Shown piece after piece: positions 3,001 through 6,000 of a DNA stretch of 39,659 nucleotides; position 1 is the stretch's first letter, and each line of letters opens with the position of its first letter. This stretch comes from Myxococcota bacterium (GTDB lineage Bacteria > Myxococcota > XYA12-FULL-58-9 > JALHOP01), in contig JBGGMJ010000005.1 of the NCBI GenBank assembly GCA_041288095.1, positions 1 to 39,659 on the forward strand, read 5' to 3'. The position numbers were made by a program.

Positions 3001-6000
3001 CTGAGAATGGCGCTGAAGTCGAGCCGCTCCTGGAGCTTGAGCGCGAGATCGGGATCGTGCTTGGCGATCTCGGTGAGCGCGGTCATGCGCGGCTGCGCTT
3101 TGACGAGCCGGCGGTCTGCGACGGGGCTAGGTACGACCGCCACGGCGCTCGCGAGCCCGGGCAACGGTGTTGCGGTGCGTTCGACAGTGAGAGCGCTCAT
3201 CGACCAATCCTCCACCCGGAGTCTCGGTATCGGCAGCGCCTCGACGCACGGACACAGTCCACCGCCTGCGGTTGTGGCACTCACGTGGCGGCCGGTGTCG
3301 CCACCAGCCGCTACCTACCTGTAGAGAACCGCTAGCTTACGGCAGCGGGTTGAACTTGACCGCGGGGCGGATCACGACGACCGAGCCCTTGGCGCCCGGG
3401 ACCGACCCGTGGAGCAGTACGACGTTCTGCTCGGGGCGAACCTCGGCGATGCGCACGTTCTGCGCGGTCACGTTGTCGTCACCCATGTGGCCCGGCATGC
3501 GGCGGCCCTTGATGACGCGACCCGGCCACTTACGGCAGCCGATCGATCCGCCATGGCGGAAGTACTCGTGGGTACCGTGCGAGGCGTTGAAGCCCTTGAA
3601 CTTGTAGCGGCGCACGACGCCCTGGAAGCCCTTGCCCTTGGTGCGGCCGGCCACGTCCACGAGGTCGCCGATCTTCCACTCGACGTCCTTGAGCGAGATC
3701 TCGGCGCCGACTTCGAACTTCGCGAGGGTCGCGTCACTGACGCGGAGCTCGCGCACGACGCGGCGAGCCTTCTCGTTGCCGCCGAGCGCCTTCACGACGC
3801 CTTTTTCGGGGCTCGAGAGCAGACGCTCGGGCTTGTTGCCGAAGCCCAGCTGGAGCGCGGTGTAGCCGTCGGTGCGGCCGTTCTTGTTGGTGGCCTTGGT
3901 GCGCTTGTTCATGACGAGGTTCGGACCGAGCTCGATGACGGTGACACCAATCGCGGTGCCGTCTTTGTCGAACACTTGCGTCATACCGAGCTTGCGACCA
4001 ATCAGACCGAGCTGGCGCTCTTTCATCGTACTAACCTCCGGGACTCGCGATTCACCTGCTGGCGAACGGTTGGTCCCCAATTGATAGGGCGCGCCAAATA
4101 CGGGACGGGCCCTGATTTGTCAATCTCAGTCGAGCGGGGCCGCCGGGAAAGCGGTGGCCGGGGGCGCTACATTGAGGAGCTTGGCGACCGTATGCGTGAA
4201 GGTCGAGAAGGTCAGCTCGTCCTCGATGACCTTGCCGGCGCTAACCGCCTTGGGGGCGCGCACCAGGAACGGCACCGTGAGGTCGTAGGTGTAGGGCATG
4301 CCGTGGGTCGCGCCCGAGCCGTCACCGAAGCCGGCCCCACGCGCCAGGACGACCATGATGTCGCCTTCGGAGTCGACAGGATAGGCGTTGCAGACCAACA
4401 CATCGAGGCCGGGACCCGTCGGGCAGGTACCGGGCAGCGTCTTCACGTCGAAGGCGCTGGAGACCCCTGGCTGGGCCGTGAGGGTCGTGAGCAACGCGGG
4501 GACCAGGCGCTCCCGCACCCCGGGGGCACGGCCTTCGTCCGTCAGGGCGACGAAGGCACCGACGAAACCATGCAGCCACCGACCCGGCCCCAGGACCTTC
4601 TCGGCCGTCTTCGTGAGCTCCTGGGCAATCTCTTGGCGGGACATGCGCTTGAGATCCCTGCAGGGGCGGTCCCATCGATCCGCTGAAGCGGACTTGCACT
4701 CGGGACGCATGGGCTGCACTTCGGGGATGGGCTCGACACCGTGATCGGCAGACAGCGCGACCGCCCAGCCATCGGCTCCGAAGCGCTTGTCGAGGCCTTC
4801 GAAGAGGCGGGCGAGGGTGCCGTCGAGGCGCAGCAGCTCGTCCCAGGCCTCCCAGGCGTCAGGCCCGAAGGCGTGGCCGATGATGTCGTTCGCCGACAGG
4901 GAGAGCGACAGCAGCGTCGGCTGGCCGTCGTGGCGCTCGGCGTCCAGCGCCGCCAGCGCGAGCTCGACCAACATGATGTCGGATTGTGGGCTCAAGCGGA
5001 CGGCCGCTCCGAGCGGGGCCTGGCGAATGAGGTCGTGCGGAAAGGCGCGCATGCTCGGCTCTTCGCCGTCTTGATCGTCGGGCGTGAGCACGTGTCGGGC
5101 GAGCCAAGCGGGGTCGAGCGGTGTCCACGGCTGCGCCAGACGCTCGGGAATGGTGCGCGAGACATCGACCGCCCACGCCGGCAGCGCTTCTCCGTAATAA
5201 GTGGAGGTGACGAGCTCGGCGGTCTCGATGTCGAACCACACCGCGACCTTCGGCGACTTGCCCACCGGCAGGATGGCGCCGCGATCCTTGAGCGACAGAC
5301 CCATGACCAGCGCATCGGGATACTGGGCGCGGAACATGTCTGCGACGCCGTCGACCCGCAGGACTTTCGGCGAAGCGCCGGCGCGCGCCGACACTCCACG
5401 CGTCGAGACCAGCCGCGTATCGTCGTCCGCCATTGTGGACACGACCCGTCCATTGCGTAGCGCCTCGTTGGACATGACGCCGCTCCGCGCCGGCGGCGCT
5501 CCGGTGAACAACGCCGCATGGCCACAAGCCGTCTCGGTCGCCGCATGGGCATAGCGGATCGCTCGCACGTACGTGCCCTCACGCCGCAAGCGCGCGAAAC
5601 CGCCATCGGCCGGCAAGGTCTCGAGCCGCTCGCTCGCCACCCAGGCGGCAAACTGATCGACGATGATGGTGACGACGACGGGCGCCCCCGTGGACTTCTT
5701 CGGTGCGGGATCGCTGCGCGTGCTGGAACAAGCGAACACGCCGAGGCAAAGCAGGGGGAGGTACTTCACGGCGGGCCGTCTAGCCGAGGTCCGACACGAC
5801 CGACAACACTTAAAGCGGTAACCGGAAACCGCCACCCTCCCTGAACTCGAGCGTGAAGCCGAACTGGAAGGTGATGTTGCCGTTGCCGTCGGCGAGGGCA
5901 GGGGGCGGATTGTTGAAGGGCTCGGCGCGGCGGAAGGCGTTGACCGCTTCGGCGTCGAGGAAGTCGAGCCCGCTCGAGCGCATGACGACCGCGTCCCGAA

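Follow-up and report, generated by a model that had tools for sequence, protein, structure and literature searches.

A candidate leader for ribosomal protein uL3, with the form of the helix-96 C-loop, 5' of the detached rplC gene of Myxococcota

The window analysed here, a stretch of 39,659 nucleotides (positions 1 to 39,659 of contig JBGGMJ010000005.1, assembly GCA_041288095.1, from a Myxococcota bacterium), contains a gene for the ribosomal protein uL3 and, far from it and on the other strand, the start of an S10 operon that lacks this gene. The genes concerned are:

3337..4026, - strand: rplC, encoding uL3 (229 aa, identity by PDB search), a single-copy gene outside the S10 operon
31548..31880, + strand: rpsJ, encoding uS10, with which the S10 operon remnant begins
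31895..32527, + strand: rplD, encoding uL4, 14 nt after rpsJ in the normal place of rplC

The window's genome holds one copy of rplC, and an earlier note on this DNA had described it as a stand-alone gene, opposite in strand to an operon in which rpsJ abuts rplD. Both parts of this description are upheld, in the window, where rpsJ ends at 31880 and rplD starts at 31895, some 27.5-28 kb from rplC, and well beyond it. rplC was found in 21 of the 22 class genomes and in 120 of the 121 sampled Myxococcota genomes, and rplD in all 121; in none of the 120 does rplC lie within 1.5 kb of rplD, and in the 23 where the two share a contig they are spaced by at least 5.6 kb. At all 30 rplD loci (14 from the class, 16 from other classes) rpsJ lies directly 5' of rplD, the gap being estimated at -4 to 127 nt, and neither rpsJ nor rplD was found at rplC in 23 class loci or in 96 loci of other classes, 80 of the latter covering the upstream side only. 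The relocation of rplC is real and phylum-wide in the sampled Myxococcota. The rpsJ-rplD junction is accordingly a synteny marker for the phylum, and part of a neighbouring phylum has the same junction; outside the Myxococcota, rplC stands alone at 11 of 30 loci from the phylum of genome G129, whose record is labelled Bdellovibrionales. No long open reading frame beside rplC gave a ribosomal-protein Pfam match at any of 36 loci, which leaves uL3 as the sole ribosomal-protein candidate in cis.

Several features of the surrounding gene order were recorded in passing. The downstream neighbours of the detached rplC are often ribosome-related, being an RluA-type pseudouridine synthase at four loci (L009, L010, L015, L017), an FtsJ/RlmE methyltransferase at three (L105, L112, L120) and an ABC-F-like ATPase at three (L108, L111, L117). 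In the window a gene with two FHA domains (913-2082, + strand) converges on rplC, with two unannotated genes in between, and such a gene converges on rplC in seven class loci (L011, L012, L013, L014, L018, L019, L021). At L169-L171 (family f14) and L199 (f21) the gene ending directly 5' of rplC, which we take to have an enolase-like motif, leaves scant space for a separate rplC leader. The str cluster of the window (14548-21321) is also broken, with unrelated genes between rpsL-rpsG (14548-15410) and fusA (19249-21321) and about 10 kb between fusA and rpsJ, and the genes in the positions of uL29, uS17 and uL5 (35506-36287 and 37096-37773) have long Lys/Ala/Glu-rich terminal extensions.

Upstream of rplC the following elements were assigned, all on the - strand (here and below, square brackets within a motif enclose the bulged or extruded bases):

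4095..4123: predicted sigma-70-type promoter, TTGACA (4123-4118), 17 nt, TATTTG (4100-4095)
4088..4094: G+C-rich, discriminator-like stretch after the -10 box
4040..4077: leader hairpin, with a lower stem (4077-4073 / 4044-4040), a C-loop (by sequence form) and an irregular upper stem
4069..4073: long strand of the C-loop, C[CAA]C, bulged bases 4072-4070, equivalent to E. coli 23S 2681-2683
4044..4046: short strand of the C-loop, G[A]G, base 4045 extruded
4035..4039: Shine-Dalgarno sequence GGAGG, directly 3' of the hairpin base

A promoter of its own, beginning with TTGACA, had already been proposed for rplC and is supported by TTGAC, which all 21 class leaders have 39-76 nt 5' of their GGAC arm; a generic promoter scan did not call it, owing to the weak -10 box. 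The predicted transcription start falls near 4088-4085, and our reading of 4088..4094 as discriminator-like presumes the role that we ascribe to such stretches. The hairpin itself was previously given as 4024-4084; it is real, though the hairpin proper is confined to 4077-4040, with a terminal loop of 4 nt (4060-4057). The E. coli numbering of the bulge was obtained by offset from the sarcin-ricin loop. As looked for in an r-leader, the structure sits between a (predicted) promoter and the start codon. The strict class pattern has one match in the 5.85-Mb genome, at the rplC leader, and a looser pattern has six. The folding energy is ordinary (z of -0.14 to -2.29 for the window, with three other leaders likewise not significant), no terminator-like site was found on the rplC strand in 3100-4400, and a search of the window with Rfam 15 gave no match above the gathering threshold, in agreement with the earlier note; 20 leader loci, eight of them from Coriobacteriia, gave no leader family in Rfam and only one tRNA. 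Among expression runs, seven had shares of 0.05-0.09, and the four of these examined traced to relatives' contigs or other uL3 genes, with the leader uncovered.

The class alignment comprises 19 of the 21 leaders (L017 and L019 were left out). GGAC-C and GUCC are invariant in it, and the nine pairs of the hairpin are formed in 90.5% of cells, against 15-55% in slid controls. Four core pairs never vary and are therefore uninformative on pairing; the signal is carried by the loop-closing (upper flanking) pair, which changes from C-G to U-A in two of the 19 leaders, and by the next pairs, which covary. Twelve cells show a change on both sides, a number reached by two of 500 shuffles, which ignore relatedness. 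The invariant GGAC/GUCC stem and covarying inner stem of the earlier note are thus sustained, and genome G002, which it had singled out as a weak case, has a perfect core and merely a longer inner stem. A tight descriptor matches 21 of 21 class leaders, where 2.0 are expected, and one on the reverse strand. The class leader hairpin is real, and has the conserved secondary structure with covariation that is expected of an r-leader.

The core of the leader consists of two flanking pairs, three bulged bases of which the first is C, and one extruded base, a 3-versus-1 loop of the form C[C-N-A/C]Y / R[N]G that is also that of 23S helix 96. In 20 of the 21 class leaders it reads C[CWA]Y / R[N]G. A C-loop, as defined in a section of PMC4551918, has two flanking Watson-Crick pairs, a strand of three bases starting with C and 0-2 extruded bases opposite; 21 of 21 class leaders have this arrangement, and in Table 12 of the same paper JAR3D accepts a variant related to theirs, in which position 4 is A and position 7 is G. 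By sequence form the class loop is a C-loop, a motif that in three dimensions would also have crossing non-Watson-Crick pairs (2 with 6 and 4 with 7). Helix 96 of H. marismortui (2716-2722/2760-2764) is among the top C-loop matches in Table 1 of PMC2952876, and it is a contact of uL3: according to a portion of PMC2275155, six residues of the globular domain of L3 form hydrogen bonds with A3047/A3048 in the helix 96 bulge of yeast, the equivalents of C2681/A2682 in E. coli and C2718/A2719 in H. marismortui; T54 of yeast is a residue named there for the N-terminal part of uL3 that makes this contact.

The genome of the window has no assembled 23S gene and class relatives were used instead for helix 96. 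Among 43 23S sequences from Myxococcota and Coriobacteriia it reads C[CKC]UG in 39, G[CGC]UG in three and C[CGC]UU in one, the second form being that of the window's genus (L244, L245, L213), with G-C instead of the usual C-G closing pair. These helix-96 letters also make up the core of the leader in families f16, f19, f22, f24, f26, f27 and f28 and in one f17 leader. In its letters the class loop departs from the helix 96 of the class, which reads C[CGC]U (G[CGC]U for the genus of the window). The loops of f12 and f20 share the CWA bulge of the class and likewise differ from their own helix 96. The class loop is similar to the C-loop of CAA type in 16S helix 15, as described in part of PMC4551918. 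The two variants are linked by L012 and by L106 of a sister group, where the helix-96 bulge CGC is set inside the GGAC/GUCC stem. To judge from these sequences, the leader copies the architecture of a uL3 contact documented in the literature, the class matching that architecture and not the letters. The letter mismatch is the main weakness of a mimicry reading, and a cryo-EM study, in a passage of PMC9687910 where higher uL3 occupancy goes with stronger domain VI density "except H96", counts mildly against helix 96. A likeness to the rRNA site of the presumed ligand is nevertheless present, in the class as loop architecture only, so that the earlier finding of no rRNA mimicry is superseded and the proposal of a candidate L3 leader gains from the C-loop form of its CWAC loop.

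For the search beyond the class, three descriptors were written, all after the Myxococcota leaders had been viewed and with both strand orders allowed. They match about 10% of random windows and, since Watson-Crick pairs are required, pair tallies on their matches are circular. In the own-genome background, 114 of 1167 random SD-ATG windows match the tight descriptor. In other classes it matches 48 of 96 leaders, of which about 10 will be chance as 10.1 are expected, and nine on the reverse strand; 5' of rpsJ it matches 1 of 26 and 2 of 70. The strict descriptor finds 11 of 21 class leaders (1.8 expected), 39 of 76 others (6.9 expected) and 12 of 20 held-out loci (2.4 expected), the register being doubtful in five of these 12 (L231, L232, L233, L235, L236); five f17 strict matches overlap the promoter and are in the wrong register. 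Both the strict and the relaxed descriptor had faults: the strict one, the first to be written, was too strict above the loop and missed the window leader and all three class helix-96 sequences, and the relaxed one reached 21 of 21, 48 of 76 and 14 of 20, but with a background of about 20% and a spurious match in L017. The canonical-operon control gave an excess, 10 of 74 against 3.2, of which seven lie in or across the coding end of rpsJ, one is unexplained and two are Coriobacteriia leaders.

Credible sets were obtained in f22 (7 of 7), f16 (12 of 14, across descriptors), f19 and f27 (2 of 2 each), f13, f24, f26 and f28 (1 of 1 each) and f17 (4 of 15); most of them have the letters of helix 96, C[CKC]UG / A[Y]G. 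The strand order is swapped, with the short strand first, in f20 (7 of 8), f12 (7 of 17) and f25 (1 of 1), which carry the module GGAC[CAM]U / A[N]GUCC in this order; f20 reuses the GGAC[CAA] and GUCC words of the window. The swapped order speaks for selection on a three-dimensional shape. A credible motif was lacking in f10 (14 loci), f14 and f18 (three each), f11, f15, f21 and f23 (one each), or in 11 of the 15 f17 loci. The leader is class-wide, as the earlier note called it, in that every class leader has it; it is not confined to the class, and the limit drawn in the note, which had not found the motif in 16 loci from other classes, does not hold in view of the matches there, some of them strand-swapped, and in Coriobacteriia. 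A pattern scan of metagenomes returned two matches, both 5' of rplC, which on inspection look the same as leaders L016 and L009 and are hence not independent. Six f17 leaders (L179, L180, L182, L185, L187 and L229) are without a C-loop, precede a GTG start and have an A/T-rich word of the form CATTGATTT, flanked by two G+C-rich hairpins.

In the phylum of G129 the C-loop descriptors match none of the 11 stand-alone rplC loci, where long N-terminal extensions shift the search window. Three of these loci (L319, L322, L323) share another conserved leader, CCAG...UGAUGG, which the C-loop descriptors do not match and which might fold, with the strands swapped, into a 3-versus-1 loop that has UGA as its bulge. 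Four other loci of this phylum (L329, L330, L332, L334) have in the rpsJ-rplC spacer a conserved hairpin, CCAUG-AUGCAUCCCU...AGGGUGAUGCUGUGGAGG, that ends on the rplC Shine-Dalgarno sequence within an intact S10 operon and is a possible separate r-leader.

The two Coriobacteriia loci (Actinomycetota) revealed by the ordinary-operon control set have the same hairpin 5' of rplC. With the descriptors unchanged, the tight one matches 22 of the 30 best-scoring of 41 Coriobacteriia genomes (2.3 expected; L274 is the seed genome) and the strict one 21 of the same best 30 of 41 (2.7 expected, none on the reverse strand), counts that include three and one spurious matches, respectively, in or across the rpsJ coding region. 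A core GGUC[CKC]U / A[N1-2]GACY, in which one or two extruded bases are allowed, is present wherever rplC has a separate leader (23 of 23 loci) and absent from all seven loci with a 16-19-nt rpsJ-rplC gap; the hairpin lies about 60-80 nt 5' of rplC-rplD in 23 of the 30 loci (L274-L303). Since rplD follows rplC in these genomes, uL3 is the one gene common to the Myxococcota and Coriobacteriia settings. A transfer of rplC between the two groups is disfavoured, if not formally rejected, by a quick tree of 73 selected rows in which 13 Coriobacteriia uL3 proteins form their own clade (SH-aLRT 99) outside a 38-row group that holds the Myxococcota. L074 and L077 also have a terminator-like hairpin after rpsJ, and the seven hairpin-less loci have fusA, rpsJ and rplC in a row, apparently without tuf in between, to judge from the end of the upstream peptide.

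uL3 is an early, primary binder of the 50S subunit. We think it likely that the leader is an autogenous r-leader of this protein, acting by rRNA mimicry, and uL3 is accordingly the probable ligand. Were uL3 the ligand, control would quite probably operate by blocking translation rather than through transcription or mRNA decay, as the Shine-Dalgarno sequence lies at or close to the end of the stem. The gap between the two is 0 in the window, has a class median of 8 nt (range -4 to 36, 19 leaders), is 1-3 nt in 12 f16 and -2 to 2 nt in seven f22 leaders, and gives way in f20 to an overlap of the stem with the Shine-Dalgarno sequence; for five class leaders the gap amounts to 16-36 nt. uL3 in excess of free 23S rRNA would bind the C-loop of the leader and, docked 4-5 base pairs above the Shine-Dalgarno sequence, would sterically hinder loading of the 30S subunit, such that uL3 synthesis would drop until rRNA titrates the protein away. 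A switch that sequesters the Shine-Dalgarno sequence was considered and rejected, as forcing the stem left the predicted pairing of this sequence unchanged; in the folding model the stem is formed anyway, and both results count against the favoured reading.

The foremost alternative, which we hold to be unlikely, is that the C-loop binds protein but not uL3 alone, its ligand being another C-loop-binding ribosomal protein, a complex of uL3 or, in Coriobacteriia, uL4. C-loops are a general protein-binding motif, recurring in rRNAs and in a translationally controlled bacterial mRNA (sections of PMC2952876 and PMC9516175), and the CWA bulge of the class, f12 and f20 loops is unlike their own helix 96, while uL4 is the established ligand in the E. 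coli S10 operon (a section of PMC10931766). The module, however, tracks rplC and not rpsJ or rplD, many leaders copy helix 96 letter for letter, and L012 and L106 join the two loop variants in a single stem.

Less probable still is a structural 5' hairpin that needs no ligand and either tunes the translation rate or shields a short mRNA from decay. Such a hairpin would suit a stem that is predicted to be constitutive and that lies within some 10-50 nt of the predicted transcription start, as it would the several families that do without the motif; a mere stabiliser, though, has no need of an invariant and destabilising 3-versus-1 loop of rRNA-like sequence, and this loop is kept in two strand orders and two phyla as stems and terminal loops drift and folding energies stay ordinary. 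A DNA operator, with GGAC...GTCC as inverted half-sites for a transcription factor just 3' of the promoter, is the least plausible reading, for all that four palindromic pairs are invariant in the class and lie 39-76 nt after the -35 box, because the half-sites are about 20 to more than 40 nt apart in the class and as much as about 70 nt apart outside it, the signal belongs to one strand (21 against 1), f20 has the halves in the opposite order and the stem letters vary between lineages with pairing preserved.

Returning to uL3 as the ligand, we favour, with some reserve, the broader reading that uL3 is a hitherto unrecognised autogenous repressor of bacteria which reads the helix-96 C-loop, and that its leaders may have arisen more than once: in the Myxococcota, with two strand orders, after rplC had left the S10 operon and, separately, in the Coriobacteriia, where uL3 and not uL4 would control rplC-rplD. 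Should this be true, the r-leader repertoire would gain a repressor and a mimicked rRNA site, both of them new, a minimal RNA ligand of about 40 nt would be available for uL3, and the locus would illustrate how a gene taken out of a near-universal operon regained stoichiometric control. With both strand orders and two phyla represented, the natural variants are a ready structure-function series.

No description of a split rplC in myxobacteria or of an L3 leader was found in a largely open-access literature. The parts of PMC2995063, PMC4338331, PMC4624896 and PMC9196750 consulted hold nothing decisive, and the 2024 review of ribosomal-protein moonlighting (PMC10931766), in the portion used here, has no section on uL3. 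Table 1 and Table S1 of PMC7247131 assign none of 20 new r-leaders to L3, as the earlier note had stated, nor any of 35 earlier ones. The L4-Archaeoglobi and S10-Clostridia/Firmicutes motifs of that paper also stand 5' of rplC-containing operons, with putative ligands, and by eye no C-loop of the rplC-leader kind is present in the part of each alignment inspected.

A functional parallel is the S10 leader of E. coli, where an early 50S protein, uL4, likewise exerts feedback, on an operon that includes rplC. That leader is long, works by NusA-dependent termination before rpsJ and is found in part of the Gammaproteobacteria only (a section of PMC10931766), whereas here a 38-nt hairpin precedes a detached rplC; an attenuator of the E. 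coli type is not what is found, there being no terminator-like site in the leader or anywhere on the rplC strand in 3100-4400 and rplD lying about 28 kb away on the other strand. A C-loop also occurs in a bacterial mRNA operator, which we take to be that of thrS, a tRNA mimic. The motif is the same and it serves translational control in both cases, as far as the relevant part of PMC9516175 describes it, with a different ligand and a gene that does not encode a ribosomal protein. Helix 96 itself (E. coli about 2680-2684/2725-2727; H. marismortui 2716-2722/2760-2764) agrees with the leader in its closing C-G pair, the three-base bulge that begins with C, the Y-R pair and the single extruded base; the class leader differs in setting C[CWA]C / G[N]G on a GGAC/GUCC stem, where the helix 96 of the class combines a CGC bulge with a U-A pair and is closed by G-C in the genus of the window. 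The L1, L20, S8, S15 and S6:S18 r-leaders covered in part of PMC7247131 are likewise structured 5' leaders before a ribosomal-protein gene, those among such leaders that mimic rRNA have conserved loop bases like the rRNA site of their protein, as in the rplC leader, and S15 and L20 have several scaffolds for one ligand, as the rplC leaders do. Beside these mimics the candidate rplC leader would be the one that takes the C-loop of helix 96 as its model.
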